Notes under the pieces: generated by a model
What the model was told of the DNA's origin: nothing
Database searches by the model: none
The model's input: only the letters and a program-made list of their open reading frames with translations
Program-made: the position numbers and the translations under genes
From: Thermoanaerobaculia bacterium
GTDB lineage: Bacteria > Acidobacteriota > Thermoanaerobaculia > UBA5066
Length of the DNA stretch: 64,000 bases
Assembly (NCBI GenBank): GCA_035542215.1
Contig: DATKLW010000082.1
Location: 1,733 to 65,732 of the forward strand
Direction: 5' to 3'
Shown: positions 16,506 to 35,085 of the stretch, one piece after another
Position numbering within the stretch: position 1 is the stretch's first letter
How the letters are laid out: the number at the start of each line of letters is the position of its first letter

Positions 16506-17948
16506 TCAGCGCGGCGTTCCGCCTTCGAACCCGCCCCCGAGAGCCTTCACGAGGTTGACGCTCGCCACCATGCGGCGCGTGCGGAGGTCGACGGCCGTCC
16601 GCTCGTTCGAAAGGGCCACCGTCTGCGCCGTCACGACCTCGAGGTAAGTCGTGATGCCGCCCTGGTAGCGGTTCTCCGCGAGCTGAACGAGTCTCCCGGA
16701 GGCCGCGACGGCGGCCGCCTGTTGCCTCTCCTCGAGGGCGAGCAGCCGCAGGGCGGCGAGCTGGTCCTCGACCTCCTGGAAGGCCGTGAGGGCGGTCTCG
16801 CGGTAGGCGCCGACGGCGGCGTCGTACTCGGCGCGGCGCTGCTCGGTCACGCCGCGGCGGCGGCCGCCGTCGAAGAGCGTGCCGAGCGCCGCGGGGCCGA
16901 GGGACCAGATGAAGGCCGGGGCGGTGAAGAGCTTCGACAGCGTCGTGCTCACGAAACCCGCGGAGGCGTCGAGGGAGATCGTCGGGTAGTACGCGGCGAC
17001 CGCGACGCCGATGAGCGCGCTCGCGGCGGCCGCGCGGCGCTCGGCGGCGGCCACGTCGGGCCGGCGCTCGAGGAGCTCGGACGGCAGGAGGCCCGGGATC
17101 GCGGGCGGCGCGACGGAGATCTCCGCGGCCGGGATCGTGAGGTCGGCCGGCGCCTTGCCGACGAGGAAGGCGATCGCGTGCTCGGTCTGGGCGCGCGAGA
17201 TCGCCACGTCGATCGCCTGCGCGCGCGTCGTCTCGAGGAGCGTCTCGGCCTGCGCCACGTCCACGCCCGAGACGACACCCTGGTCGTGGCGGTTGACCGT
17301 GAGCTTGAGGGCTTCCGCCTGCGCGGCGACGTTCGTGGAGAGCAGGGCGATCTCCGCGTCGAAGCCGTGAAGCTGGAACCAGCTGGCCGCGAGCTCGGCT
17401 TCCATGGAGAGCTTCACGCTCTCGAGGTCGTTCTGCGCCGCGGCGACGCCCGCGCTGCTGGACTCCACGTTTCGTCGCACGCGGCCCCACACGTCCAGCT
17501 CCCACGACGCGTCGCCGGCGGCGGAGTACGTCGTCGCCGTCACGGGCACGGGGCCCGGCGCTCCGGCCTGGTTCGTGAGAACGCGCGCGCGCGTCGCGGC
17601 GGCGCTGGCCGACACGGTTGGCGTGAAGTCGGCGCGCGTCTGCCTCAGGATGGCGCGCGCGGCGCGGTACCGCGCCTCGGCCTGCGCGATGGTCGTGTTG
17701 GAGGTCGCGAGCTCGTCTTCGAGCAGATCGAGATCCGGGTCGCCGAAGATCTTCCACCAGGCGCCGCGCGGCAGGGCGTCGGCCGGGCGGGCGACCCTCC
17801 ATTCCGAGGCGTCGACCGGCGCCTCCTTGAAGGAGGAGGGCGCGACGGTCGCGGGCTTCACGTAGTCCGGCCCCACCGCGCAGCCCGACACGGCAAGGGC
17901 GAGGGCAAGGGCGAGGGCGCCGCGGAGCGAGTCAGATCGCTGGTTCAT
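16506..17948 (-). CDS. Outer-membrane efflux lipoprotein, NodT/OprM family
   Basis: Lipobox LAVSGC, the two OEP repeats, and a position at the end of an RND operon. It overlaps the 3' end of the preceding RND gene by 17 nt. Confidence 0.9.
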   Translation of the reverse strand: MNQRSDSLRGALALALALAVSGCAVGPDYVKPATVAPSSFKEAPVDASEWRVARPADALPRGAWWKIFGDPDLDLLEDELATSNTTIAQAEARYRAARAILRQTRADFTPTVSASAAATRARVLTNQAGAPGPVPVTATTYSAAGDASWELDVWGRVRRNVESSSAGVAAAQNDLESVKLSMEAELAASWFQLHGFDAEIALLSTNVAAQAEALKLTVNRHDQGVVSGVDVAQAETLLETTRAQAIDVAISRAQTEHAIAFLVGKAPADLTIPAAEISVAPPAIPGLLPSELLERRPDVAAAERRAAAASALIGVAVAAYYPTISLDASAGFVSTTLSKLFTAPAFIWSLGPAALGTLFDGGRRRGVTEQRRAEYDAAVGAYRETALTAFQEVEDQLAALRLLALEERQQAAAVAASGRLVQLAENRYQGGITTYLEVVTAQTVALSNERTAVDLRTRRMVASVNLVKALGGGFEGGTPR

Positions 17949-20900
17949 GCGAGAGGTCCGCTTTCCTGGTGCGCCCGCGGCGCCGGGACTCCCAGCGCAG
18001 CCTCAGGCGGTCGAGGTAGAGGTAGATGACGGGCGTCGTGAAGAGCGTGAGCATCTGGCTGAAGACGAGTCCGCCCACGATCGCGATGCCGAGCGGGCGG
18101 CGGAGCTCGGAGCCGACCCCGGACCCGAGTGCGAGCGGAAGGCCGCCGAGGAGCGCCGCCATCGTCGTCATCGTGATGGGGCGGAACCGGAGGATGCAGG
18201 CCTGGAAGATCGCGTCCTCGGGGCTCTTCTTGTCCTTGCGCTCGGCCTCGATCGCGAAGTCGATCATCAGGATCGCGTTCTTCTTGACGATGCCGATGAG
18301 AAGGATGATCCCGATGAGCGCGATCACGCTGAGATCCGTCCCCGTGAAGAGCAGGGCCACGAGAGCGCCCACGCCCGCGGACGGGAGCGTCGAGAGGATC
18401 GTGACGGGGTGGATGAGGCTTTCGTAGAGGACGCCGAGGACGATGTAGACGGTCAGGAGGGCCGCGAGAATGAGGATGGGCTCGTTCGCGAGCGATTCCT
18501 GGAAGGCCTTGGCCGTGCCCTGGTAACTCGGGCGGATCGCGGACGGGAGGCCGATCTCGCCCGTCGCCTTGTTGATCTCGTCCACGGCGTCCCCGAGGGC
18601 GACCCCCGGCGCGAGGTTGAACGACAGCGTCACGGCGGGGAACTGACCCTGGTGGTTGATCGCGAGCGGGGCCGTCGTGCGCTCGAAACGCGTGAAGGCG
18701 CTGAGCGGAACCTGCGTGCCGTCCCTCGCCTTGACCCAGATCGATCTCAGGCTCTCCGGGTCCTGCCAGTATTTCGGATCCACCTCCATGACGACGTGGT
18801 ACTGGTTGAGCGGCTGGTACATCGTGGAGACCTGGCGCTGGCCGAACGCGTCGTACAGGGCGTCGTCGATCTGCTGCGGCGTGATCCCGAGGCGCGACGC
18901 GGTGGCCCGGTCGATCGTGACGTCGGCCTGCAGGCCCTTCGTCTGCTGGTCGCTGTTGAGGTCGACGATTCCCTTGATGCTCTTGAGCTTCTCGAGGACC
19001 CTCGGAGCCCAGGTCTCGAGGTCCCGATGGTCGTCGGCCGAGAGCGTGTACTGGTACTGGGCGTTCGACGCGAAGCCGCCGATGCGGAGGTCCTGCACGG
19101 CCTGGAGGAACAGGCTGCCCCCGGCCACCGAGCCGAGCTTTCCCCTCAGGCGCCCGACGACCTGGTCGGCGCTGAGCTTCCTCTTGCGGAGGTCCTTCAG
19201 CGTGACGAACATGCGCCCGCCGTTCACCGTGCCCTGGCCGCCCGTGTAGGCCTGAACGTACTCGGTCGCGGGGTCCTTCATGACGACCTCGACGAACGCC
19301 GCGACGCGCCGCGACATCGCCTGAAAGGACGTGCTCTGGTCGCCGAGGATCGCGCCGGACAGGCGGCCGGTGTCCTGCTGGGGGAAGAACCCCTTCGGCA
19401 CCTTGACGAACAGGAGGACCGTCGCCGCCATCGTCGCGAGAGTGACCGCGAGCGTGAACGGCTGGTGGCGCAGGACCCAGCGCAAGGCGGTCTCGTAGAC
19501 GTCGAGGATCCACTTGAACGCCTTCTCGGACGCCGCGAACACGCGCCCGTGCTTCTCCTCGTTCTTTCCCTTGAGGAGCCAGGCGCACATCATCGGAGTC
19601 GTCGTGAGGGAGACGAGCATCGAGACGAAGATGGCGACCGAGAGCGTGACGGCGAACTCGCGGAAGAGGCGGCCCACGATGCCGCCCATCAGGAGGATCG
19701 GGATGAAAACGGCGATGAGGGACATGCTGATCGAGAAGACCGTGAAGCCGATCTCGCGGGCGCCCTCCAGAGCGGCCGCGAAGGGCGCCATGCCCGCCTC
19801 GACGTGACGCGTGATGTTCTCGATCACGACGATCGCGTCGTCCACGACGAAGCCGGTCGCGATCGTCATCGCCATGAGGGACAGGTTGTCGATGCTGTAG
19901 CCGAGGAGGTACATCGCGCCGAACGTCCCGACGAGAGAGACGGGCACGGCCACGCTCGGGATGATCGTCGAGCGCACGCTTCTCAGGAACGCGAAGACGA
20001 CGAGGATGACGAGCCCGATCGAGATCATGAGCGTGATCTGGACGTCCCTCACGGACGCACGGATCGTGCCGGTCCGGTCGAGCATGACGGACACCTTGAT
20101 CGTGGGCGGCACTTCGGCCTGGAGCTGCGGCATGAGGGCCGTGATGCGGTCGACCGTGTCGATGATGTTCGCGCCGGGCTGGCGAAACACGATGAGAAGG
20201 ACGGCCGGCTGGTTGTTCGCGATCCCGGTCGTCATGACGTTCTCGACGGAATCGGTCACGGTGGCGATGTCGGAGAGCCGGAGCGCCGCCCCGTTCCTGT
20301 AGGAGACGACGAGAGGCCGGTACTGGTCGGCCTTGAGGAGCTGATCGGTCGTCGCGATGGACCACAGGCGTCCGCCCATCCCGAGCTCGCCCTTCGGGCT
20401 GTTCGCGTTCGCGTTCGCGAGGAGGGTCCGCACGTCCTCGAGGCCGAGGCCCGTCCGGCTGAGGGCGGTCGGGTTCACGTCCACGCGCACGGCGGGGAGC
20501 GCGCCGCCGCCCGCGAACACCTGACCGACGCCCGGCACCTGAGCGAGCTTCTGCTGGAGGACCGACGACGCGAGGTCGTACATCTGGGAGCGCGGCGCGA
20601 TGTCGGACGTCAGGCCGATCAGCATGATCGGGGCGTCGGCGGGGTTCACCTTCCGGTAGCTCGGGTTGTTCGGGAGGTTCGTGGGTAGCTGGCCGCGGGC
20701 GGCGTTGATCGCGGCCTGGACGTCCCGCGCGGCGGCGTCGATGTTCCGCGAAAGGTCGAACTGGAGCACGATCGTCGTGGAGCCGAGGGAGCTCTGCGAC
20801 GTCATTTCGGTGATGCCCGCGATCCGCCCGAACTGCCTCTCGAGGGGCGTCGCGACGGACGACGCCATCGTGTCGGGGTTCGCGCCGGGCAGCGCCGCCG

Positions 20901-21042
20901 AGACCTGGATCGTGGGGAACTCCACCTGGGGAAGCGGCGCCACCGGGAGAAAGAAATAGGCGATGCCGCCGGCCAGCGCGAGCGCCACCGTGAGAAGGCT
21001 CGTCCCGATCGGCCTGCGGATGAACGGCGCGGAAAGGCTCAT
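17932..21042 (-). CDS. mdtC: RND multidrug efflux permease, MdtC-like
   Basis: 1036 aa. The N-terminus [49 protein letters not shown] is typical of MdtC/AcrB-family pumps. ATGA overlap with the upstream RND gene. Confidence 0.9.
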
Positions 21043-24000
21043 CGGCCCGCCGCCGGCGACGGCTCGGGCGCGCCCGCGCCCGCCGCCTCGTCCCTCCGCG
21101 GCCCGGTCTTCGCGAGCCGGGCGGCGAGCCGGTCGAAGTAGAGGTAGATGACCGGCGTCGTGTAGAGGGTGAGCATCTGGCTGAAGATGAGGCCGCCCAC
21201 GATCGCGATCCCGAGCGGCCGCCTGAGCTCGGCGCCCGTGCCGGTCCCGAGAGCGAGAGGCACTCCGGCCAGGAGCGCCGCCATCGTCGTCATGATGATG
21301 GGGCGGAACCTCTGCAGCGCGGCCTGGGTGATCGCGTCGAGAGGCGCCTTCTTGTCCTTGCGCTCGGCCTCGAGGGCGAAGTCGATCATCATGATCGCGT
21401 TCTTTTCCACGATCCCGATGAGAAGGACGATGCCGATGAGCGCGACGACCGTGAAGTCCAGCCGGCAGAGCATGAGCGAGAGCAGGGCTCCCACGCCCGC
21501 CGACGGGAGGGTCGAGAGGATCGTGACGGGGTGGATCGCGCTCTCATAGAGGACGCCGAGCAGGATGTAGACGGTCACGAGCGCGGCGAGGATGAGGATG
21601 GGGGTGTTCGTGAGCGAGGCGCCGAACGCCCGCGCCGTGCCCTCGAACTGGGCCTGGATGCTCCGGGGAAGCCCGAGCTCCGCCTGCGCCTTCTCGATGG
21701 CCTTCACGGCGGCCCCGAGGGAGGCGTCGGGCGCGAGGTTGAACGAGACCGTCGCCGCGGGGAACTGCCCCTGGTGGTTCACGGCGAGAGGGGCGTTGAC
21801 CGTCTCGACGGTGGCGAGCGCGCTCAGGGGGACCGAGCCTCCCGTGGACGAGCGCAGGTAGACGTTCTGGAGGTCCTCGGGCCTCACCTGCAGCTCGGGG
21901 CGGCCCTCGAGGACGACGCGGTATTGGTTGAGCTGCGTGAACATGGTCGAGACCTGGCGCTGGCCGAACGTGTCGTAGAGCGCGTCGTCGATCTGCTGCG
22001 GCGTGACGCCGAAGCGCGACGCCGAGTTCCGGTCGATCACGACCCGCGCCTGGACCCCCGAGGTCGAAAGGTCGCTCGCCACGTCGCGCAGCTGGGGGAG
22101 CGCTTTCAGCCTGTCGACGAAGCGCGGAACCCAGACGGCGAGCTCTGCGGCGTCGGAGTCCTCGAGGCTGTACTGGTACTGCGTCTTGCTGACCCGGTCC
22201 TCGACCGTGAGGTCCTGCACGGGCTGGAGGAAGAGCAGGATTCCCGGGACCTTGTTGAGCTCGGGCTGGAGCCGCCGGATCAGGTCGTCGGCGCCGATCT
22301 TCCGGTCTTCGAGGGGCTTGAGGTTGATCTGGATCCGCCCGCTGTTGGGCGTCATGTTGGTTCCGTCGACGCCGGTGAACGACGAGAGGCTCTCGACGGC
22401 CGGGTCCCTCAGGATGACGGCCGCGAGCTGTTGCTGCCGGGCGGCCATCGTCGAGAAGGAGACCGTCTGCGGCGCCTCGGAGATTCCGAGGATCACGCCC
22501 GTGTCCTGCACCGGAAAAAAGCCCTTCGGGATCACGACGTAGAGGAGGATCGTCGCCGCGAACGTGAGGATCGCAACGGCGAGCGTGGCGGGCTGGTGCC
22601 GGAGCACCCAGGCGAGCGTCCGCTCGTAGAAGTCGATGATGCGCTGGAAAACGCGCCCCGAGGACCGGTAGAACCGGCTCTGCTGGTCCTCGGGGACGTG
22701 ACGGAGGAGGCGCGCGCACATCATCGGCGTGAGCGTGAGCGAGACGGCCGCCGAGATGAGGATCGTGACCGAGAGCGTCACGGCGAACTCGCGGAACAGG
22801 CGTCCGACGATGTCGCCCATGAAGAGGAGCGGGATCAGGACCGCGATGAGGGACACGGTCAGCGACAGGATCGTGAAGCCGATCTGCTCGGAGCCCTTCA
22901 GGGCGGCCGCGAGCGGCTTTTCTCCCTGTTCGATGTAGCGCGAGATGTTCTCGATCATGACGATCGCGTCGTCCACGACGAACCCCGTCGAGATCGTGAG
23001 CGCCATGAGGGTGAGGTTGTTCAGGCTGTAGCCGAGGGCGTACATCGCGGCAAACGTCCCCATGAGGGAGAGCGGGACCGCGACGCTCGGGATGACCGTG
23101 GCCGGAATGCTCCTCAGGAAGATGAAGATGACCATGACGACGAGCGCGATCACGAGCATGAGCTCGAACTCGACGTCCGCGACGGACGCCCGGATCGTCG
23201 TCGTGCGGTCCGTGAGGATGCGGACGTCGATCGCGGCCGGCAGGCTGGCCTTGAGCTGCGGGAGGAGGGTCTTCACACGGTCGACGACCGCGATGATGTT
23301 CGCGCCGGGCTGGCGCTGGATGTTCAGGATGACGGCCGGCGTCTCGTTCATCCACGCGGCCTGCTTGACGTTCTCGGCGCTGTCGACGACGAGCGCGACG
23401 TCGGAGAGACGAACCGGTGCGCCCTTCCGGTAGGCGATCACGAGGGGCAGGTAGTCGGCGCTCGCGAGGAGCTGGTCGTTCGCGCCGATCGTGTAGGACT
23501 GGCTCTTGCCGTCGAAGCTCCCCTTGGCCTGGTTGACGTTCGCGTTCGCGAGCGCCGCGCGGACGTCCTCCATCGTGAGGCCATAGGACGAAAGCGCGGT
23601 CGGATTGACCTGGACGCGCACGGCAGGCTTCTGGCCGCCGCTGATCGAGACGAGGCCGATGCCGGGGAGCTGCGAGATCTTCTGCGCGAGCCGCGTGTCG
23701 GCGATGTCCTCCACCTGGGAGAGCGCCATCGTCTTCGAGGTGAGGGCCAGCGTGAGGATCGGCGCGTCGGCCGGATTCGTTTTGCTGTAGATCGGAGGGT
23801 TCGGGAGGTCCTTCGGGAGATAGGTTCCCGCCGCGTTGATCGCGGCCTGGACCTGCTGCTCGGCGACGTCGATGTTCAGTTCGAGCGTGAACTGGAGGGT
23901 GATGACCGACGCGCCCTGCGAGCTCGTCGAGGTCATCTGGTTGAGGCCCGGCACCTGGCCGAACTGCCTCTCGAGAGGCGCGGTGACCGAGGAGGCCATG

Positions 24001-24173
24001 ACGTCCGGGCTCGCGCCGGGATAGAACGTCAGCACCTGGATCGTCGGGTAGTCGACCTGCGGGAGCGCCGACACGGGGAGCTGATGGAAGCCGACGACGC
24101 CGATCAGCAGGAGTCCCGCCATCAGGAGGGACGTCGCGACCGGCCGCTCGATGAAGGGTCGGGAGGGGTTCAT
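21039..24173 (-). CDS. mdtB: RND multidrug efflux permease, MdtB-like
   Basis: Start re-set to the ATG at 24173 ([47 protein letters not shown]). The 395 upstream codons of the track ORF overlap the MFP gene out of frame and were rejected. Confidence 0.9.
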
Positions 24174-25429
24174 CGACCCGTCGAGGTCCCCGCGGGGGCC
24201 GGCGCCGCGGGCGCGGGGGTGGCCGCCGTGCCGGGAGCGCCGGGCCTCGCCGTCTCCACCCTGGAGCCCGCCTGCAGCCGGTCCACGCCCTCGGTCACGA
24301 CGACCTCGCCCGCGGCGAGCCCTTTCGAGATCGCGGTCGCGTCGCCTTCCGTGAGCCGGACTTCGACCGGGCGCACGTCGACGGTCTGGTCTTCCTTGAC
24401 GACGAACGCGAAGTTGCCCTGCGTCCCGCGCTGGATCGCGGCGTTGGGGACGAGGACGACGCCCTTGAGCGTGTCGATGAGGAGCCGCGGATTCACGAAC
24501 TGGTTCGGGAAGAGCGAGTCGTCGGCGTTCGCGAAGATCGCCTTGAGCTTCAGCGTGCCCGTCGTCGTGTCGATCTGGTTGTCGAGCGTCGCGAGCTCGC
24601 CGGTCGCGAGCTTGTGCTTGAGGTCGCGGTCGAACGCCTCCACCGGGAGCTTCACGCCCTGGCGCACCTTCGCGCGCACGACGTTGACCTGAGCCTCCGG
24701 GAGCGTGAAGACGACCGCGATGGGCTGCACCTGCGTGATCACGACGAGCCCGTTCGGGTCCGAGGCGTGAATCATGTTCCCCGCGTCGACGAGGCGCAGC
24801 CCGACGCGGCCGCCGATCGGCGCCGTGATGCGCGTGTAAACGAGGTTGAGCCTCGCGGCGTCGACCAGTCCCTGATCCGTCTTGAGGACGCCTTCGTCCT
24901 GCGCGACGGTCGCGGCCTGCGTGTCGAGCTGCTGCTTCGGGATGGAGTCCTGTGTCGCGAGAACCCGGTAGCGCTCGAGGTCCAGTCTCGCGTTCTGCAG
25001 CGTGGCCGCGTCCTTCGCGAGCTGGCCCAGGGCCTGGTCGAGCTGCACCTGGAAGGGGCGCGGATCGATCTCGGCCAGGAGCTCGCCCTTGCCGACGATC
25101 TGCCCCTCCCGGAACGCGACGGTCGCGAGCTCGCCGTCCACCCGGCTCCGCACCGTGACGGTGTTCAGGGCCGTCACGGTTCCGAGTCCCGTCAAATAGA
25201 CAGGAAGGTCTCCGATGCGGGCGGCCGCGGTCACGACCGACACCGCGCGGGGGCGCGCCTTCGCGTCGGCCTCGTTTCTCTGACGCTTGCGCCGCGCCCC
25301 GACGATCAGGATGGCCGCGATGACGATCAGTACGACCGCCCCGACGATCCAGGGCCACCGGCGGTGGCCTTCCAGGAGGGGCCCGCCGCCGGGCGTCCCG
25401 GTTCGAGGCGCTTCAGAAGACGTGTTCAA
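24170..25429 (-). CDS. mdtA: RND periplasmic adaptor (membrane fusion protein), MdtA-like
   Basis: HlyD/MFP body ([39 protein letters not shown]...). The start is proposed at the TTG at 25429 with GGAGAG 5 nt upstream; the upstream part of the track ORF is Arg/Pro-rich junk. Confidence 0.85.
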
Positions 25430-25591: not shown

Positions 25592-25837
25592 GTGCACGCC
25601 TCGAGCGACGAAACGATCCCCGTACGCGCCCCCCGGAAGGGACTCTGGATCCTCGTCGCCGTGGCGGCGGTTCTCGCCGGCGCAGGGTTTCTCTGGTGGC
25701 GGGCGAGGAGCCGGAGGCCGCATTACGTCACGGCGGCGGTGACGCGCGGCGCGGTCCAGCGCAGCGTCAGCATGACGGGCGCGCTGAACCCGCTCGTCAC
25801 GGTGCAGGTCTATTCTCCATGGCCGCCAGCCCGATGA
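25592..25837 (+). pseudogene. N-terminal remnant (~70 aa) of a MacA/HlyD-type periplasmic adaptor gene
   Basis: An 81-codon ORF encodes a TM anchor (GLWILVAVAAVLAGAGFLWW) and then HYVTAAVTRGAVQRSVSMTGALNPLVTVQV, the canonical start of MFP barrel-sandwich proteins. It then diverges and stops after 11 more codons, overlapping the start of the next gene. Confidence 0.4.
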
Positions 25838-27366
25838 GTCCGAGCGAGGTCCCGATTCGCGGCCTGCCTCTCCAATGGCGTCTCGGGCTTTCGACGTCCG
25901 TGATCGTCACGCTGGTTCTGGGCTCCCTGACGTTCTTCTTCCAGAGGAGCGAGGTCGCGCGGTCTCGCGAGCGCCGGGAGGGCGTTCTGGCCGAGGCGGC
26001 GGCGCCTCTCGCCTCGGACATCGAGGCGGCGCCAGACGTCTCGGCGTTGCGCGAGCGCCTCGGAAGCTTCGAGGATGCGCACGCGCGGCGCGGAGACCGG
26101 CATCTCCGCGCATTTCTTCGGGACGCGGACGGCCGTCCTGCCGTGGGACGCTCGGACGACGTTCCGCGAGAGCCTCCCCCCGGGTCCTTCCGCGCCCGGC
26201 TCGAGGTCGTCACGAGCCTTCTCCGCGGCGGCCGCGGCACGCTGGAGGTCTGGCAGGACGGCCAGGAGTTCGAGCAGACGGTCGAACGCCGCTGGAGGTT
26301 CTGGATCCTCAGCATCGCGGCCGCCATTGCGTCTCTTCTCGTCTCGCTCTTTGTCGCCTACCACCTCCTCATCGAGAGGCCGCTCCGCCGGCTGGTCGAC
26401 GGCGTGGGCCAGATGGAGAAGGGCTACTGGAGCGGCCTCGAGATCCCGCGCGGCGCGTGGGAGCTGCGCTGGCTCGCTCACCGGTTCCGCAACCTCGGGA
26501 CGCAGCTCGAGGAGACCGTCAGGCGCCTCGTCGAGGCGGAACGGCGCGCGGGACCCGAGCAGCCGGTCCCCCGCATCGTCGCGGATGGCGACCCGGCGGC
26601 GGCGGCGGGCGGCGACGCCCCGCCGGCGCCCGTGGGCGGCGCCCACGTCCGAAGGCGGCTGCTGCGGCGCACTCTCGCGTCGCGTTGCCGCTTCCTCGAA
26701 TCGCAGGACCCGAAGGACGCCGGAGCGAGGGCCGCGGCGAAAGTGTCGTGGGAACGCGACGTCGCAGAGGCCGACCGGCTCGGTGACGACGGTCTGAAGA
26801 CCCGGCTCGAGGACGCCGCCCTGAGGATCCTCGAGCCCGCCGCGTTCGAGGAGATCAGGCGGCGGCTATCGACGCTGCCCGCGACGAACCGGACCTGGCT
26901 GAGGAAGCGTGAGACGGAGATCCGGAAAGCCCTCGCGGATGGACACGTCCGCCACAGGGCCCTCCGCTACCGCGTAAAGAACCCGGCGGGCATCTGGCGC
27001 AAGAGTCATGCGAAGGGCCTCGCTCTCGACCAGGTCCAGGACGTGGTGGCCTTCCGGATTGTCGTGAAGGACGAGCACGACTGTTACCTCGCCCTGAAGG
27101 CGATTCACGCCCGGTTCGAGCCGCTGCTCCTCAGGTTCAAGGACTACATCGCTCATCCCAAGGAGAACGGCTACCGGAGCCTCCACACCTGCATCAAGGC
27201 TCAAGACGGGATCGTGTTCGAGGTCCAGATCCGGACCCTCGACATGCATCTTCAGGCCGAGGCCGCGCACTGGCGCTACAAGGCGGGTGACGGCTTGCCA
27301 GGCGGCGGCCCCGGGGGTGCTGCCGAAGGGAACTCGGCACGCGATGTGCGTGCGCCCGCCCTTTGA
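25819..27366 (+). CDS. Membrane-bound HAMP-domain protein with a C-terminal RelA/SpoT-type (p)ppGpp synthetase domain (small alarmone synthetase-like); no HD hydrolase domain
   Basis: Start re-set to the ATG at 25819. TM1 is ~aa 21-41, followed by a ~118-aa charged loop, TM2 at ~aa 160-184 and a HAMP-like segment (IERPLRRLVDGVGQMEKGYW...RFRNLGTQLEETVRRLVEAE). Residues ~380-488 are YRVKNPAGIWRK...DVVAFRIVV...FKDYIAHPKENGYRSLHTCI...FEVQIRTLDMHLQAEAAHWRYK, the RelA_SpoT synthetase signature. Confidence 0.8.
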   Translation: MAASPMSPSEVPIRGLPLQWRLGLSTSVIVTLVLGSLTFFFQRSEVARSRERREGVLAEAAAPLASDIEAAPDVSALRERLGSFEDAHARRGDRHLRAFLRDADGRPAVGRSDDVPREPPPGSFRARLEVVTSLLRGGRGTLEVWQDGQEFEQTVERRWRFWILSIAAAIASLLVSLFVAYHLLIERPLRRLVDGVGQMEKGYWSGLEIPRGAWELRWLAHRFRNLGTQLEETVRRLVEAERRAGPEQPVPRIVADGDPAAAAGGDAPPAPVGGAHVRRRLLRRTLASRCRFLESQDPKDAGARAAAKVSWERDVAEADRLGDDGLKTRLEDAALRILEPAAFEEIRRRLSTLPATNRTWLRKRETEIRKALADGHVRHRALRYRVKNPAGIWRKSHAKGLALDQVQDVVAFRIVVKDEHDCYLALKAIHARFEPLLLRFKDYIAHPKENGYRSLHTCIKAQDGIVFEVQIRTLDMHLQAEAAHWRYKAGDGLPGGGPGGAAEGNSARDVRAPAL

Positions 27367-27412: not shown

Positions 27413-27811
27413 ATGATGAAATTACGCCTTCTGTGGATCGCGGCGGGGGCGGCGATGCTCGCCGCCGGCGCTCCGGCCCAAGGTGCCGATCCGGGCGACG
27501 GGGCCCCGGCCGGGCAGACGCCGCCCGCCCAGCGGATCGCGATCGATCCACGGACGGGCATGCTCGCGGCCGCTCCTCCGGCGGCGTCGACGGCGGCCCC
27601 GAGCCCGGCCGTGCGCAGCGCCCCGCTTGTGGGCGTCCGGCTCCAGAGCGGAGCGACGAGGGTGGACCTGAAGGGCCGCTACCGGATGGCCGTGGTCGCG
27701 CACGTCGACGCCGCCGGATCGATCACGACGAGCTGCGAGCCGGCGGGCGAGCCGTCCGCGAAACAGGATTCCACCGGGGGGCACACGGTCGAGGCGCAGC
27801 ATGAGAAGTGA
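27413..27811 (+). CDS. Small secreted hypothetical protein (132 aa)
   Basis: The ATG at 27413 gives the signal peptide MMKLRLLWIAAGAAMLAAGAPAQG. Pro/Ala-rich middle and a short beta-rich C-terminus with one Cys. It overlaps the downstream metalloprotease gene by 11 nt. Confidence 0.6.
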   Translation: MMKLRLLWIAAGAAMLAAGAPAQGADPGDGAPAGQTPPAQRIAIDPRTGMLAAAPPAASTAAPSPAVRSAPLVGVRLQSGATRVDLKGRYRMAVVAHVDAAGSITTSCEPAGEPSAKQDSTGGHTVEAQHEK

Positions 27812-29468
27812 GCGTCTCGCGGCCGTCTTTCTTGCGCTCCTCCTCGGCGCCGTTCCGGCACTCGGACAGGCGACGTTCCAGGTCGTCAACGGAGACGCGG
27901 CCGGCGTCGGCCTGAACGACCCGACGCCCGTGTCGCCGGTCGGCGGCAACACGGCGACGACGCTCGGCGGACAGCGGATGGCCGCTCTGCAGTACGGGCT
28001 CTCGCTCTGGTCGAGCCGCGTCAACAGCTCTCTTCCCATCCGGGTGCAAGCCTCCTTCTCGACGGACGGCTCGCTCACCTGCAGCGCCACCCAGGCGGTC
28101 CTCGCCTCCACCGGCCCACAGGAGGTCGTGCGCGACGACCCGACGTTCCCTCAGCAGGGAGTCTGGTACTCGGGCGCGCTTGCCAACGAGCTCTCCGGCC
28201 AGGTCCAGACCACGATGCCGGAGATCGAAACGAGGTTCAACGGCAAGGTCGGCACGTCCGCGTGCCCGTTTCCGGGATCCTGGTATCTCGGCTTCGACGG
28301 CGCCGCCGGCTCCGGCCAGATCGACTTCGTCGCGATCGTGAGCCACGAGATCGCGCACGGCCTCGGGTTCCTGACGTTCGTCGACCGGACCGGCGCCGAG
28401 CTCGCGGACGACACGGGGCCGTTTCCCGACGCCTTCGAGGAGCGGCTCTTCGATCTCTCGTCCGGTCTCGCGTGGCCCGCGATGACGGACGCGCAGCGCG
28501 CCTCGTCCTCGCTCAATACGGGGAACCTCGTCTGGACCGGACCGCAGGTCGAGGCGAAATCGGGTCTCTTCTCGGCCGGCGTTGCGGCGGGGGGCCGGAT
28601 GAAGATGTACGCCCCGGCCACGTATACGAACGGCTCTTCGGTCTCGCACTGGGATTCGTCCCTCAGCCCGTACGAAGCGCTCGAGCCGTTCTACAGGTCC
28701 GGAGTCCACACCCTCATCATCACGGGCCAGGCGCTCGCCGACACCGGCTGGACCCTCGCCGGGTCGGCGCCGTCGACGTCGTGGATCCTGCCTTCCTCCG
28801 TGCACGCGCCCGGAATCGGCGGAGCCTTCTACACGACGACGCTCACGGTCGCGAACACGGGCACGACGTCCGCCGCCGTGACGCTCAAGTTCCTCGGCCA
28901 CGACCAGGACGGCACGAACGGCCCGACCGCGACGCAGACGCTTCTCCCGGGTGCGTCCGTGACGTACCCGGACGTCCTCGCGGAACTGTTCGGCGCCCCG
29001 AGCGGGGCCTACGGCGCGATCCTGATCACGGCTCAGACGACGTCCCTGAACGTCGTCGCCGAGAACTCCACGCCGAATCCGGGCGGCGCCGGCACGTTCG
29101 GACAGAGCGTGCCCGCGCTCGCGGCCGCCGACCTCGTCACGAACAGCTCGGGCCGGACGATCGTGGCCGTCACGGACGACGCGAACTTCCGCACGAACCT
29201 CGTCCTCGCGAACGCGACCTCGACTCCCGTCACGGTGTCCCTCGCGCTCCTCGATGCGGGCGGAGCGACCCTCGGCACGTCGAGCGCGTCTCTCCTGCCT
29301 TTCGAGATGACGCAGATCGGCGCCGTCGGCCGGACGATCGCGGGAGGTTCGAACGTCACGAACGCGACGCTCGTCCTCACGACGGCGACGTCCGGCGGCT
29401 CCTTCGCCGCCTACGCGAGCGTCATCGACAACGGCACGAACGACCCGCGGACGCTGCTCGCGCGCTGA
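27801..29468 (+). CDS. Secreted zinc-metalloprotease-like protein with a C-terminal beta-rich domain
   Basis: Signal peptide (AVFLALLLGAVPALGQA), an HEIAHGLGF zinc-binding-type motif and a downstream SVSHWD motif. A ~230-aa Thr/Ala/Asn-rich, predicted beta-sandwich region follows. Confidence 0.7.
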   Translation: MRSERLAAVFLALLLGAVPALGQATFQVVNGDAAGVGLNDPTPVSPVGGNTATTLGGQRMAALQYGLSLWSSRVNSSLPIRVQASFSTDGSLTCSATQAVLASTGPQEVVRDDPTFPQQGVWYSGALANELSGQVQTTMPEIETRFNGKVGTSACPFPGSWYLGFDGAAGSGQIDFVAIVSHEIAHGLGFLTFVDRTGAELADDTGPFPDAFEERLFDLSSGLAWPAMTDAQRASSSLNTGNLVWTGPQVEAKSGLFSAGVAAGGRMKMYAPATYTNGSSVSHWDSSLSPYEALEPFYRSGVHTLIITGQALADTGWTLAGSAPSTSWILPSSVHAPGIGGAFYTTTLTVANTGTTSAAVTLKFLGHDQDGTNGPTATQTLLPGASVTYPDVLAELFGAPSGAYGAILITAQTTSLNVVAENSTPNPGGAGTFGQSVPALAAADLVTNSSGRTIVAVTDDANFRTNLVLANATSTPVTVSLALLDAGGATLGTSSASLLPFEMTQIGAVGRTIAGGSNVTNATLVLTTATSGGSFAAYASVIDNGTNDPRTLLAR

Positions 29469-29483: not shown

Positions 29484-31049
29484 TCACCCGCGGCTGCGCA
29501 TCAGGTTGAACTTCGCGAGCTCGGCGTACGTGAGCGTCGAGTCGAGGTCCTCGCGCGCGATCCGGAGGTTCTGGACGAGGCCCTCGAGGACGAGCTCCAT
29601 GAGGAACGCGCGCTCGTAGTGGTCGCGCGGCTTCGCGTGCTTGAGGACGAAGTCGGCGAGGCCCGCGACGGACTCGAGCGTCTTGAGGTGCTCGGAGAAC
29701 GGCGTCTGGTCGGAGAGGACGATCTTCTTCCCGTCCGCGAACCACGCCGCGATCGCGTCGTACGGGCCCGGCGGGGGCGCCGGGGCGCGCCGCCCTTCGG
29801 CCCGCTCGAGCGCGGTCGGGCCGCCACCCTCGTCCTCGTCGAGGTCGGCGCGCGGCCGGCGGGGGCGCTCGGCGCGGCCACGCGGCCCCTCCACCGGCGG
29901 GAACTGCGCCTCGAACAGGTTCTTGACGGCGTCGCCGATGAGCTTCTTGGCGACGATCTCGGCGCCCTGCTGCTCGCCCTCGAAGACCATCTCGACCTTG
30001 CCCGTGATCGCGGGAAGCGTCGCGAAGAGGTCCACGAGGCGCGGCGCGACGACGCTCTCGCCCGTCCGGAGAGCCCGCCGCTCGAGGTTCGAGATGAGGA
30101 GCTCGCGCGCGGCGATCGGGAGGCGGGCCGAGACGCCCGAGGACTGGTCGACGAGCTCGCTCTTCCGCGCGACGAAGGCGATCTCCTCGACGAGGAGCTT
30201 CACCTCTTCGCCGAGCAGGACCGTGACGCCGTGGAGCGTCCGGTCCGTCCACGCCTCCTGGTCCGTGATCGCGGACGCGGTCTTCGGGTCCTGCGGATAG
30301 TGCGTGAGGATCTGAGAGGCGATGCGGTCCTTGAGCGGCGTGATGATGTTCCCGCGGTTCGTGTAGTCCTCGGGGTTCGCGCTGAACACCATGAGGACGT
30401 CGAGCGGGATGCGCAGCGGGAAGCCGCGGATCTGAAGGTCGCGCTCCTCGAGGATGTTCAGGAGGCCGACCTGGATGCGCGGCTGCAGGTCCGGCAGCTC
30501 GTTGATCGCGAAGATGCCGCGGTTCGTGCGCGGGACGATCCCGTAGTGGATGACGTCCTCGTCCGCGAACGTCTTCTTGAGCGTCGCGGCCTTCACGGGG
30601 TCGACGTCGCCGATGAGGTCCGCGATCGTGACGTCCGGCGTCGCGAGCTTCTCGCGGTAGCGCGCGTCGCGGGGGAGCCATGCGACGGGGAGGTCGTCCC
30701 CGGACGAGGCCGCCATCCGCCGCCCGTACGCCGTGAACGGCGCGAACGGCGACTCGTTCAGCTCGGAGCCCGCGATCACGGGGATCTCCTCGTCGAGGAG
30801 GTTCACGAGGGCGCGCAGGATGCGCGTCTTCGCCTGGCCGCGCAGGCCGAGGAGGATGACGTCGTGCTTCGCGAGGATCGCATTCTGGAGCGCCGGGATC
30901 ACGGTCTTCTCGTACCCGAGGATCCCGGGAAAGACGTTCTCGCCCGCCTTCAGCTTCGCGATCAGGTTGTCGCGGATCTCGTCCTTGACCGTCTTCGGTC
31001 CGTAGCCGGCCGCGACGAGCTCTCCGAGGGTCGTGGGGCGATCGGTCAT
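29484..31049 (-). CDS. AAA+ ATPase, Mg-chelatase ChlI/BchI-like (COG1239-type)
   Basis: 521 aa. Walker A is LLGLRGQAKTR, with a Walker B/sensor region GIFAINELPDLQPRIQVGLLNILEERD, followed by an acidic linker and a helical C-terminal domain. Confidence 0.75.
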   Translation of the reverse strand: MTDRPTTLGELVAAGYGPKTVKDEIRDNLIAKLKAGENVFPGILGYEKTVIPALQNAILAKHDVILLGLRGQAKTRILRALVNLLDEEIPVIAGSELNESPFAPFTAYGRRMAASSGDDLPVAWLPRDARYREKLATPDVTIADLIGDVDPVKAATLKKTFADEDVIHYGIVPRTNRGIFAINELPDLQPRIQVGLLNILEERDLQIRGFPLRIPLDVLMVFSANPEDYTNRGNIITPLKDRIASQILTHYPQDPKTASAITDQEAWTDRTLHGVTVLLGEEVKLLVEEIAFVARKSELVDQSSGVSARLPIAARELLISNLERRALRTGESVVAPRLVDLFATLPAITGKVEMVFEGEQQGAEIVAKKLIGDAVKNLFEAQFPPVEGPRGRAERPRRPRADLDEDEGGGPTALERAEGRRAPAPPPGPYDAIAAWFADGKKIVLSDQTPFSEHLKTLESVAGLADFVLKHAKPRDHYERAFLMELVLEGLVQNLRIAREDLDSTLTYAELAKFNLMRSRG

Positions 31050-32228: not shown

Positions 32229-33620
32229 TCAGCCGGGCTTCTTGAGGCCGAACTTTTCGAGCCGGTATTGCAGCGTCCGGTACGTCAGCCCGAGCAGGCG
32301 CGCGGCCTTCGCGATGACCCAGCCGGACTTCTCCATGGCCTGGACGATGAGCTGCCGTTCGAACTCCTCGATGTCGATCCCGTCGGCGGGGATGTCGAAC
32401 CCGTACGGGCGCGCCGCCGGCGCCGTGTTGAGCCGGACCTCGGACGGAAGATCCGCGGGCGTCACGATGTTCCCCTCGCAGAGGAGGACCGCGCGCTCGA
32501 CCACGCTCTCGAGCTGGCGCACGTTGCCGGGCCAGCCGTGCCTCGCGAGGAGCTCCATCGCCTCGGGCGACACGCTCGTCACGGAGGTCCCGTGCGAGGC
32601 GTTCGCTTTCTCGAGGAAACGGAGCACGAGGGCGCGGACGTCCGACGAGCGTTCGCGCAGCGGGGGCAGCTCGACCGGGATCACGTTCAGGCGGTAGAAG
32701 AGGTCCTCGCGGAACTGGCCCGCCTTCATCATCGCCGTGAGGTCGCGGTTCGTCGCGGCGACGACGCGCACGTCGACGGGGATCGTCTCGTTCCCGCCGA
32801 CGCGCTTGACTTCCTTTTCCTGCAGCGCGCGCAGGATCTTGCCCTGAAGGGGAAGCGTGAGGTCCCCGATCTCGTCGAGGAACAGCGTCGAGCCGCTCGC
32901 CGCCTCGAAAAGGCCGATCTTGCGCGAGTCGGCGCCCGTGAAGGAGCCCCTTTCGTGTCCGAAGAGCTCGCTCTCGAGCAGGTTCTCGGGGATCGCGGCG
33001 CAGTTCAGCGCCAGGAAGGGCCGTGCAGACCGGTTCGACCGCGAGTGAACCGCGCGTGCGACGAGCTCCTTGCCCGTGCCGGACTCGCCGTGGATGAGGA
33101 CGGTCGAGTTCGTTGGCGCGATTTTCTCGACGAGGCGGAAGAGGTCGCGCATCGCGGCGCTTTCCCCGACGATCGCCTCGAGGCCGTCGCTCTTGAGGCG
33201 CCGTTCGAGACGCAGCGTCTTTTCCGCGAGCCGGAACGCCTCGAGGGCGCGCTCGACCCGGAAGAGGAGCTCGTCGGCGACGACGGGTTTGGACATGTAA
33301 TCGAACGCGCCGAGGTGGTGGGCCTCGCGCGCGCGCTCGACGGAGCCGTGGGCCGTGACGAGGATGACCTTCGGAGGGAGCGGGTTGTCCGCGGAGGAGC
33401 TCAGGCTCTTCACGACGTCCATTCCCGTGAGGCCCGGCATCTTGAGATCCGTCAGGACGACCTCGGGCCGGATCTCCGCGGCTTTCGCGAGCGCCTCGCG
33501 GCCGTCCGCCGCGGCCGCGACGCGGTAACCCTCGTCCTCGAGGATGACGGTCAGCGACTCGCGCTGGTGCTTTTCGTCGTCGACGACGAGGAGCGTCGCT
33601 TTCGGTTCCTTCGAGGTCAC
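32229..33620 (-). CDS. Sigma-54-dependent response regulator (NtrC family: REC + AAA+ + HTH)
   Basis: REC domain ([10 protein letters not shown]...DLKMPG), Walker [15 protein letters not shown] (a GAFTGA variant) and a C-terminal Fis-type HTH ([22 protein letters not shown]). Confidence 0.92.
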
Positions 33621-33636
33621 GGGGTGGAGATTACCC

Positions 33637-35085
33637 TCAGGCGGCCACGGGGAGCGAGATGCGGAAGACGGCGCCCGGCCTTCCGTCCGTCCGGTTCTCT
33701 CCGGTCACGCGCCCGCCGTGCTCCTCGGCGATCCGTTTGACCATCGCGAGTCCGAGGCCGACGCCGCCCTCTTTCTTCGAGAAGTAGGGATCGAAAAGGC
33801 GCGGGAGGTCGCTCTCGTCGAGGCCCGGGCCCTCGTCCGTGACGGTCAGAACGAGGCGGCGGCCGGCGTCCTCGGGGCCGTTCTCGGGCGCGACGCAGAC
33901 GGAGAGCGTCCCGCCGTGGCGCTCCATGGCCTGGATCCCGTTCTGGACGAGGTTCCAGACGGACGACTTCAGGAGATTCCCGTCCGCCGTCACGTTCGGC
34001 CGGGCGGACGGGAGCTGCACGTCGAACTTCACGCGTGCGCGCTCGGCGGTTTCCGCGAGGTCCGCGAGGGTGCGCGCGACGATGGCCGCGAGGTCCGTCG
34101 GTGCGAGCGTGAGCTGGAGGGGCCGGCCGTACGCGAGGAAGTTGTTGATGAGCGACGCGAGGCGGGTGATCTCCTGGCGGAGGGCCTCGATCCGGCCGCC
34201 GTATTCGGCGACGGCGGCGGGGTCGGCCGGCGCGTGCCGGCGTTTCAGGACGTCGAGGCCGAGCGAAAGCGCGTTGAGCGGGTTCTTGATCTCGTGCGCG
34301 AGCCCCGAGGCGAGGTGGCCGATCTCCGCGCGCTTCTCGGCGGCCGCAAGGCGCAGCTCGAGCTCCTGCCGTTCCCGGAGCTTCTCCGTCATCCGGTTGA
34401 ACGTCGAGGCGAGCCGGCCGATCTCGTCGTCGCGGTCGACCGGGACCGTGACGTCGAGCCGCCCCTCGGCGACTCTCGCCGCGCCGTCCGCGAGGTCGTC
34501 GAGGGGGCGCGTCGCGTTGCGCGTGATCACGAGCATGACGGCGAGGCCGAGCGCGAAGACGCCGAGGAGGGCGAAGAGGCGCCTCCGGAAGTTGTCCTCG
34601 AGCTGGGCGCGGATGTTCTCGAGGTTGTACGCGATCTCGACGTGGCCGCGCAGCCGGCCTTCGACGACGATCGGGACCGTGAGGTTCCGGTTCGTGGGTC
34701 CCGACCCGATCACACCGGAGATCACGATGTCCTTCGGCCCGTCCTTGCGCGCGCGGCGCCGCGCGGACGGCGTCGGCTCGAAGAGAGGCTTGCCGTTCTC
34801 GTCCGTCACCTTGATGTCCCTCAGGCCCCGCGCGCCGAGGGCGGCCGTGTAGTCCTCGAGGACCTTCGGGTCCTTCCAGCCCTCCGGACCGATCTGCGTC
34901 TGGCCGACCTCGATCGCCTTCGCGATCGCCTGGTACGACGCGTCGGCCTCGTCGAGGGTCTCGTTGCGCGTCTGGAAATACACGAGCGTCTGCGCGACCG
35001 CGGCGAGGACGAGGATCCCCGCCCACGTGAGGCCCAGCCGGGTCGAGAGCCGCAGGCCGCCGAAGCCTTCGGGTGCCGCCATCAT
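33637..35085 (-). CDS. Sensor histidine kinase (periplasmic sensor + HAMP + HisKA + HATPase_c)
   Basis: Start re-set to the ATG at 35085 (MMAAPEG...), which overlaps the LysE stop (ATGA). Two TM helices, HAMP (RPLDDLADGAARVAEGRLDV), H-box HEIKNPLNAL, and N/G boxes (NLVQNGIQAM, DEGPGL, GVGLGLA). Confidence 0.9.
   Translation of the reverse strand: MMAAPEGFGGLRLSTRLGLTWAGILVLAAVAQTLVYFQTRNETLDEADASYQAIAKAIEVGQTQIGPEGWKDPKVLEDYTAALGARGLRDIKVTDENGKPLFEPTPSARRRARKDGPKDIVISGVIGSGPTNRNLTVPIVVEGRLRGHVEIAYNLENIRAQLEDNFRRRLFALLGVFALGLAVMLVITRNATRPLDDLADGAARVAEGRLDVTVPVDRDDEIGRLASTFNRMTEKLRERQELELRLAAAEKRAEIGHLASGLAHEIKNPLNALSLGLDVLKRRHAPADPAAVAEYGGRIEALRQEITRLASLINNFLAYGRPLQLTLAPTDLAAIVARTLADLAETAERARVKFDVQLPSARPNVTADGNLLKSSVWNLVQNGIQAMERHGGTLSVCVAPENGPEDAGRRLVLTVTDEGPGLDESDLPRLFDPYFSKKEGGVGLGLAMVKRIAEEHGGRVTGENRTDGRPGAVFRISLPVAA

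Follow-up and report, generated by a model that had tools for sequence, protein, structure and literature searches.

The synthesis of the alarmones (p)ppGpp is classically triggered from within the cell: long RelA/SpoT homologs (RSH) read the ribosome or metabolic partner proteins, and the control of small alarmone synthetases (SAS) is transcriptional or exerted by allosteric nucleotides. The SAS RelQ and RelP form soluble homotetramers of a single-domain protein. Fusions of RSH domains are also known, namely the plant CRSH, which is Ca2+-activated and carries EF hands, and MS_RHII-RSD/RelZ of Mycobacterium smegmatis, which carries RNase HII; both proteins are soluble, with additional domains of unrelated kinds. 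The classical outputs of HAMP domains are usually joined to them by a continuous helix, and HAMP-GGDEF proteins and HAMP-adenylyl cyclases exist as further HAMP outputs. The gene considered here, designated sensor-RSH, is located at positions 25819..27366 of the forward strand in a 64,000-nucleotide stretch of DNA (the window; positions 1,733 to 65,732 of contig DATKLW010000082.1) from the Thermoanaerobaculia bacterium assembly GCA_035542215.1. Its product of 515 amino acids appears to be a domain recombination of two well-known modules, a transmembrane HAMP receptor and an alarmone synthetase, and belongs to a conserved family that is known from metagenome-assembled genomes (MAGs) and whose function is predicted. 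Taking the whole chain of inference together, it is reasonably probable that the protein is a one-component transmembrane receptor that makes (p)ppGpp under HAMP control and independently of the ribosome.

The enzymatic module occupies the C-terminal part of the protein. The catalytic core (residues 376–491; 26944..27291, forward strand, as are all parts of the gene) matched the RelA_SpoT family (PF04607) over residues 385–490, scoring 119.9 bits (cut-off 27; E = 8.4e-35), and the same domain was matched in 24 of the 24 aligned homologs. It was the sole match in the Pfam scan of the window protein; HD, TGS, and ACT domains gave none at E ≤ 1. Both the C-terminal synthetase domain and the absence of the other three domains had been noted in the original prediction, which was made from the sequence of the window and described a membrane-anchored, HAMP-coupled SAS. 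The SAS label, however, fits only in part, as the core scores closest to the Rel type. In the sequence search of the Protein Data Bank (PDB), it aligned with Rel of Mycobacterium tuberculosis (RelMtb) at 115–117 bits and with Escherichia coli RelA at 107–110 bits, versus 27–45 bits for small synthetases. Foldseek returned N-terminal fragments of Rel at 1e-13 to 1e-11 versus about 1e-7 for small synthetases, and among the NCBIfam profiles TIGR00691 (spoT_relA) scored 175 bits (curated cut-off 499) versus 45 bits for YjbM. The synthetase is therefore best described, on sequence and model comparison, as a putative truncated long RSH rather than a RelP/RelQ/RelV-like enzyme.

The similarity to long RSH extends upstream of the core, with profile positions 145–319 of TIGR00691 corresponding to residues 318–490. 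In the full-length AlphaFold2 (AF2) model, a monomer model that was built on an alignment of 81 sequences and had a mean predicted local distance difference test (pLDDT) score of 85, residues 272–374 formed five helices with pLDDT above 90. Since the alignments to Rel begin at its residues ~143–172, this helical region (residues 272–375; 26632..26943) is homologous to the helices with which the synthetase domain of long RSH starts after the HD core. Downstream of the core, the gene ends with a short, variable C-terminal tail and the stop codon (27292..27366); the tail had pLDDT below 50 at residues 493–512, conservation of 0.26–0.40, and no Pfam match.

The alignment of 81 sequences, whose members share 40–70% identity, revealed that K387, K395, D408, F440, K441, D442, Y443, H456, E468, Q470, and R472 were invariant, and that R385 and R439 (the Arg of R-F-K-D) were conserved in at least 90% of the sequences. 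Residues R385, K387, K395, D408, and E468 aligned with R242, K244, K252, D265, and E325 of RelMtb. In RSH synthetases, the R/K triad contacts the ATP phosphates, the Asp binds Mg, the Glu in ExQxRT is catalytic, and RxKD-Y binds the acceptor; every canonical catalytic position checked is retained. The RxKD motif is the version of bifunctional Rel, whereas E. coli RelA has E-F-D-D at this place. A doubt about activity had been raised because the DxxGxR position reads D-V-V-A-F-R; it proved unfounded, as the aligned stretch of E. coli RelA reads D-V-R-A-V-R and the family shows no variation at Ala411.

The N-terminal part contains two membrane segments, in agreement with the original prediction. 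The first transmembrane segment (TM1; residues ~22–42, 25882..25944) reached a Kyte-Doolittle mean of 1.5–1.9 in a 19-residue window and lies within a modeled helix of residues 18–69; its L22 was invariant and G23 nearly invariant in the 81-sequence alignment. The second (TM2; residues ~161–185, 26299..26373) reached a mean of up to 2.45 and lies within helix 149–200, which continues into the first amphipathic sequence (AS1) of the HAMP domain. The order of elements in the AF2 model was helix 18–69, helix 74–90, four strands between residues 96 and 146, helix 149–200, a 12-residue connector, and helix 213–244. Hydropathy, the AF2 model, and the hhalign comparison described below agree on the layout by which HAMP receptors are recognized, i.e., an outside domain between two TM segments with the HAMP domain directly after TM2.

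The predicted HAMP domain spans residues ~186–244 (26374..26550), with AS1 at 188–200, the connector at 201–212, and the second amphipathic sequence (AS2) at 213–244; its pLDDT was 59–84. Pfam HAMP was matched in 3 of the 24 homologs (best 1.7e-5), the window protein had weak NCBIfam matches to the TM2-HAMP part of BaeS, and the family profile matched the TM2 and HAMP of Tsr at E = 7.5e-4 and the HAMP of Af1503 weakly. The HAMP signature, comprising P188 in AS1, G202 in the connector, and E215 in AS2, was invariant in the 81 sequences, and the TM-HAMP N-terminus is kept across the homologs. Conservation over the full length of the protein peaked in the AS2 block of residues 211–220 (its first turns, R-G-A-W-E-L-R-W-L-A), with a value of 0.90, above that of the catalytic motifs. 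A word-indexed search with the N-terminal 279 residues returned 14 fragments, all of the same family, and nothing beyond. An exhaustive profile search of 1.84 billion representatives reached, beyond the family (E of 1e-12 to 1e-7), ordinary TM-sensor-TM-HAMP proteins with HisKA/HATPase or SpoIIE outputs, and these distant relatives with the same input module matched PF00672 at 1e-6 to 1e-16. When the first 250 residues of the family were compared with eight of the HAMP kinase and SpoIIE relatives, hhalign gave a probability of 99.6% and E = 4e-24 over 230 columns, covering residues 12–243 with the outside domain included. This homology over 230 columns to HAMP kinases and SpoIIE phosphatases indicates that the input module is, as judged from profile comparison, a conventional receptor chassis with an exchanged output domain, and the HAMP-like segment that had been proposed is borne out by these results.

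The segment between the two membrane helices (residues 43–160; 25945..26298) comprises 118 residues, of which 22 are K/R and 22 are D/E. It had been described as a highly charged loop of ~118 residues; the length and the charge were correct, but the segment is not a loop. Modeled separately with AF2, it formed a compact alpha/beta domain with a pLDDT of 89 and a predicted TM-score (pTM) of 0.82, in which two helices are followed by a four-stranded sheet. Its best weak Foldseek matches were Cache/PDC sensors, namely McpU (E = 0.019), PctB, PctD, and WalK (TM-score 0.56); over this group, only weak matches with E of 0.02–1 and TM-scores of 0.4–0.56 were obtained. A weak match to sCache_3_2 was found in one distant relative (P0235; 6.8e-4, under the cut-off). 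On this basis, the modeled outside domain is tentatively regarded as Cache/PDC-like. Three proteins of 417–458 residues (P0184, P0194, and P0246) keep the TM hairpin, the HAMP domain, and the RSH part with an outside segment of only ~10–35 residues; TM-HAMP-RSH is therefore the constant, conserved core of the family. As some lineages can dispense with the outside domain, part of the sensing may take place in or at the membrane, and the three short proteins may be intramembrane-sensing forms.

HAMP domain and enzyme are joined by a predicted flexible tether (residues ~245–271, with low conservation to ~280; 26551..26631). It was modeled as coil over residues 245–271, with pLDDT below 50 at 254–266, and was the least conserved internal part of the protein (0.24–0.40). 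Its length varied from 33 to 60 residues across the family (median 39), and its composition was rich in Ala, Leu, Pro, and Gly. Of the linker of ~140 residues that had been proposed, ~30–40 residues are truly flexible; the other ~100 belong to the helical region that aligns with the pre-synthetase helices of long RSH. Likewise, in the description of the protein as HAMP-coupled, the HAMP part stands, whereas classical coupling by a rigid helix is doubtful given the variable, disordered tether. As the tether is disordered, variable, and poorly conserved, a rigid rotation or piston relay from the HAMP domain is unlikely according to the model.

The gene is a complete coding sequence (25819..27366) in a single intact frame of 515 codons plus stop, without internal stops, as judged from the translation, the GC content at third codon positions (GC3), and the N-termini of homologs. 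Because the N-termini of homologs match the position of M6, the true start probably lies at either 25819 or 25834; a longer GTG-initiated variant of the same frame is possible from 25456. A 99%-identical protein (P0001) on an independent contig has a gene call with the same ends. The in-frame GC3 climbs to 0.9 from ~25900 and remains high until ~27250 in a window of ~70% GC, and this profile fits one real gene in one frame throughout. With tblastn, residues ~6–490 were found as a single colinear segment in ~30 independently assembled loci. One related copy was split (L031, 6001..7490 of MAG contig CAWGDR010000004.1), with tblastn segments for residues 6–127 and 141–497 and a called protein of 375 residues (P0075); the split reflects a frameshift, a pseudogene, or an assembly error. 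Immediately upstream of sensor-RSH, an 81-codon open reading frame (25592..25837, forward strand) resembles a gene for a MacA-type efflux adaptor that is truncated after its 5' part; it matched positions 11–64 of 371 of the NCBIfam MacA profile (E = 2.5e-4) and had a GC3 of 0.86 in its own frame. Since this macA-like fragment ends exactly at the sensor-RSH start codon, its stop marks a rearrangement or insertion breakpoint at ~25812–25819.

The family comprised more than 100 protein clusters, with relatives of 490–560 residues at a coverage of 90–96% and an identity of 42–70%. In a library clustered at 50% identity, the N-terminal profile retrieved 67 representatives at E ≤ 1e-30 and 103 at E ≤ 1e-10. 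The alignments of 24 and 81 sequences showed conservation across all parts of the protein except the extreme ends and one internal linker. In a scan of one genome per species, at least 28 loci were found, all in MAGs labeled Acidobacteriota, Thermoanaerobaculia, or Holophagales, plus one “Candidatus Eisenbacteria”; because a member had to contain two exact motifs to be detected, the number of taxa is a minimum. MAGs of Deltaproteobacteria or Gammaproteobacteria are given as the source in a few protein records. The architecture had been thought uncommon, but no fewer than 67 clusters at 50% identity and 28 or more genomes of different species carry it, so that it cannot be called rare in its clade. 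The nearest named relative was HVO50700.1 from a Thermoanaerobaculia MAG. In the databases, the members are mostly named “hypothetical,” and two names given by the Joint Genome Institute (JGI) combine “ppGpp synthetase” with “HAMP.” Two records of one cluster (P0064), MBK8598942.1 and MBK9965083.1, are annotated by NCBI as [quoted passage not shown] A Pfam scan of 24 family members, which did not include these two proteins individually, gave no HD hydrolase match. Because no scanned member has the HD domain, the bifunctional annotation is likely wrong, and it will propagate.

Based on these features, the following mode of action is proposed. The two membrane helices would place the small folded domain outside the cytoplasmic membrane, with TM2 leading into a cytoplasmic HAMP domain, and the flexible tether would connect the latter to a Rel-type synthetase stripped of its HD core and its ribosome-binding C-terminal domains. 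The protein would most likely act as a HAMP-mediated homodimer. A cue from the envelope or the membrane would shift the HAMP conformation, and the tethered synthetase would toggle between an inactive and an active state. The switch would probably operate by docking of the catalytic/helical module on the conserved AS2 or its departure from it, or by an altered pairing of the two catalytic modules; these modes are favored over a rigid relay because of the flexible tether. With ATP as pyrophosphate donor, the active enzyme would modify GDP or GTP at the 3'-OH to give (p)ppGpp, whose breakdown would fall to a separate hydrolase from another locus. We infer from the whole that (p)ppGpp synthesis would be placed under transmembrane control. 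More tentatively, and with chances that we would put slightly short of even, the family may represent a previously undescribed receptor class, in which a cue switches on a Rel-derived synthetase by tethered docking to AS2 and elicits an outside-in stringent response.

If true, such a receptor-type synthetase would link the envelope or the environment directly to the alarmone and would lengthen the list of HAMP outputs. It would also provide a ribosome-independent, outside-in route to the stringent response in Acidobacteriota, analogous to membrane-bound diguanylate and adenylyl cyclases, and tethered docking to AS2, if true, would be a coupling mode unusual among HAMP outputs. In addition, the family would be an example of a long RSH rebuilt by loss of its hydrolase and ribosome-sensing parts. 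It offers a compact, testable system, because the closeness to the well-studied Rel makes assays, mutations, and structures readily available, and the homology to sensor kinases makes chimeras feasible.

A number of observations weigh against the proposed receptor function. Pfam HAMP (PF00672) was undetected on the window protein itself in the scan at E ≤ 1, and the continuous helical connection from AS2 to the output that is usual for HAMP proteins is absent, a disordered linker of 33–60 residues standing in its place. The outside domain had no Foldseek match in the PDB at E ≤ 1e-3, and because it is nearly absent in some members, the cue may not be periplasmic. Within the synthetase, the G-R-P-K-H of long RSH is replaced by [H/Y/N]-R-V-K in the family; a change of the G-R-P-K Gly to Glu inactivates RelA and RelMtb, so that, as a caveat only, the lost Gly may affect activity. 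Finally, all family members come from MAGs, mostly of Thermoanaerobaculia or Holophagales.

The protein might be tethered to the membrane without being regulated by a signal, so that the N-terminal module would anchor a constitutive or transcriptionally controlled synthetase and the HAMP domain would only dimerize. Such an arrangement would suit a non-conserved flexible tether of 33–60 residues, which is ill-suited to a helical signal, and the existence of members almost without the outside domain. However, a plain anchor needs neither a conserved folded outside domain (pLDDT 89) nor an invariant HAMP signature; it would leave the position of AS2 as the most conserved block (0.90) unexplained, and the whole module is homologous to true signaling receptors. 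Moreover, an unregulated synthetase without a hydrolase is expected to harm growth, as is established for (p)ppGpp overproduction and also stated in PMC7229694, and we consider plain anchoring unlikely. The product could also be a different one, for instance (pp)pApp, or the enzyme could pyrophosphorylate tRNA as some toxic SAS do, which would make the protein a growth-arresting effector. RSH-fold synthetases have diversified in this respect, since the toxSAS FaRel makes ppApp as well as ppGpp (PMC7229694) and exported synthetases make (p)ppApp (PMC12691689), and the family departs from long RSH at the G-R-P-K motif. Nevertheless, the core is 31–36% identical to Rel and RelA by Foldseek and can be aligned with them over the full synthetase region; the guanine-side RxKD-Y is kept (K441, D442, and Y443 invariant, R439 in at least 90%); the catalytic domain is predicted to be cytoplasmic rather than exported; and no conserved antitoxin or immunity neighbor was present in the contexts examined. 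A product other than (p)ppGpp therefore seems quite improbable.

Replacement of the Gly that precedes R-x-K in long RSH might also point to a catalytically dead pseudo-enzyme, whose RSH domain serves the sensor as a nucleotide-binding or protein-interaction module. Against this, D408, E468, K387, K395, K441-D442-Y443, Q470, and R472 are invariant and R385 and R439 conserved in at least 90% of the 81 sequences, and invariance at 40–70% identity is typical of purifying selection on catalysis, which makes a dead enzyme very improbable. As for an artefact, in which two reading frames were mis-joined by a frameshift or an assembly chimera, both the macA-like fragment ending exactly at the start codon and the split copy in one related MAG (L031) could raise this suspicion, and a mis-join had been named beforehand as the finding that would overturn the original prediction. 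It is contradicted by the colinear protein of 490–560 residues in ~30 independent assemblies (residues ~6–490) and in more than 100 clusters, by the GC3 in one frame, and by the 40–70% divergence of the homologs, which excludes an origin from one contaminated assembly; the chance of such an artefact is negligible.

The genomic context of the family is variable. Among 27 loci, no operon partner (hydrolase, antitoxin, or regulator) was conserved family-wide, synteny being limited to subclades, and neither a hydrolase nor an antitoxin adjoined the family gene in the loci examined. The neighbors in the 70%-identity clade were genes for an ArsA-like ATPase and pyrF/pyrD, and the upstream gene in the 55%-identity clade was DHDPS-like. 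In that 55%-identity subclade, one locus (L003, 9573..12980, reverse strand) and related Holophagales loci adjoin a cluster with Phage_GPD and Phage_base_V/Gp5 (VgrG-like) genes; this points to a locus for type VI secretion or contractile injection. The 64-kb window holds no second RSH gene, no Rfam element was present in the gene or on either side of it, and the promoter and terminator scan around the gene gave nothing convincing. With no shared neighbor and no adjacent hydrolase or antitoxin, the protein acts as a stand-alone unit that does not fit the model of a toxSAS toxin-antitoxin module, in which a conserved antitoxin gene is adjacent and often overlapping; no such gene occurs in the neighborhoods examined.

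In the window, a divergent mdtABC-like efflux operon (16506..25429, reverse strand) precedes sensor-RSH and encodes an adaptor (24170..~25429), tandem resistance-nodulation-division (RND) pumps (21039..24173 and 17932..21042), and an outer-membrane factor (16506..17948). The E. coli operon of the mdtABC type is under BaeSR control. This neighborhood and the weak similarity to BaeS suggested a functional tie of sensor-RSH to the operon; the homologs do not share the arrangement, and it is probably a coincidence. On the forward strand, 46 nucleotides after sensor-RSH, a small secreted protein with a post-PEP-CTERM-1 domain is encoded (27413..27811; NF047450, 1.8e-8), followed by an overlapping gene for a 555-residue metalloprotease of the NF038122 family with an HExxH motif (27801..29468; 1.8e-10). 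These two proteins had no Pfam match and adjoin the RSH gene only here and in the 99%-identical relative. Further downstream, on the reverse strand, genes for an AAA_5/Mg-chelatase-like ATPase (29484..31049) and a sigma-54-dependent response regulator with REC, Sigma54_activat, and HTH_8 domains (32229..33704) were found.

Comparison with the described systems supports the placement of the protein within the RSH superfamily. Over ~200 residues, the synthetase with its N-terminal helices aligned with those of the long RSH structures, i.e., Rel of M. tuberculosis (5xnx), Thermus thermophilus (6s2t/6s2u), and Bacillus subtilis (6yxa), RelSeq (1vj7), and E. coli RelA (5iqr), with E = 4e-32 to 1e-23 by sequence and, by Foldseek, with 1e-13 and an identity of 31–36%. 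At the aligned positions, the catalytic Asp, Glu, and Arg/Lys agree, and RxKD is shared with the Rel type. In contrast to long RSH, the window protein is without the HD core and without the C-terminus of TGS, helical, zinc-finger, and ACT-RRM parts, and has a TM-sensor-TM-HAMP module at its N-terminus instead; it thus belongs to the RSH superfamily but is not a long RSH. RelQ and RelP (SAS1/SAS2; 5dec, 6ewz, and 6fgk) are synthetase-only like the window protein, and their core fold matched at 1e-7 by Foldseek; however, they scored ~40 bits (~115 for long RSH), 35–45 bits in the sequence search of the PDB, with similarity limited to the core residues 374–494. The absence of HD, TGS, and ACT is shared with the usual SAS, but the window protein is a predicted multidomain integral membrane protein that ends ~25 residues after the core. 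Being neither single-domain nor, by prediction, soluble, and having a Rel-like core, it does not seem to be a typical SAS.

Among the non-canonical RSH, RickRel comprises members of the long-RSH group that are secondarily single-domain, according to Jimmy et al. (2020; PMC7229694). The window family has apparently taken the same route, with a long RSH cut down to the synthetase, but has instead gained a TM receptor module. The toxSAS enzymes treated in the same paper have conserved antitoxin neighbors, and their member FaRel makes ppApp as well as ppGpp; these are likewise non-canonical RSH with a partner, whereas the window family has no conserved partner gene. Exported alarmone synthetases, as described in PMC12691689, are also non-canonical RSH with targeting elements; they bear signal peptides or secretion domains, act outside the producer, and make (p)ppApp, while a cytoplasmic location is predicted for the catalytic domain of the window protein. 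In a targeted reading, no transmembrane or HAMP-linked RSH was encountered in Atkinson et al. (2011; PMC3153485), and Jimmy et al. (2020; PMC7229694) do not mention one in their main text either. A full-text literature search, with most subscription papers outside its coverage, returned no description of a HAMP or membrane-receptor RSH, which agrees with the original statement that the architecture is not experimentally characterized.

CRSH and MS_RHII-RSD/RelZ are precedents for the fusion of RSH to a sensing or other domain, although neither has a membrane-spanning receptor. The HAMP receptors, namely BaeS-type kinases, Tsr, and SpoIIE/PP2C phosphatases, share with the window protein a homologous chassis of TM1, outside domain, TM2, and HAMP; they have other outputs and usually a continuous signaling helix, whereas the window protein carries an alarmone synthetase after a predicted disordered tether. 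In this respect, the window protein would follow the same logic as the membrane-bound second-messenger synthases.

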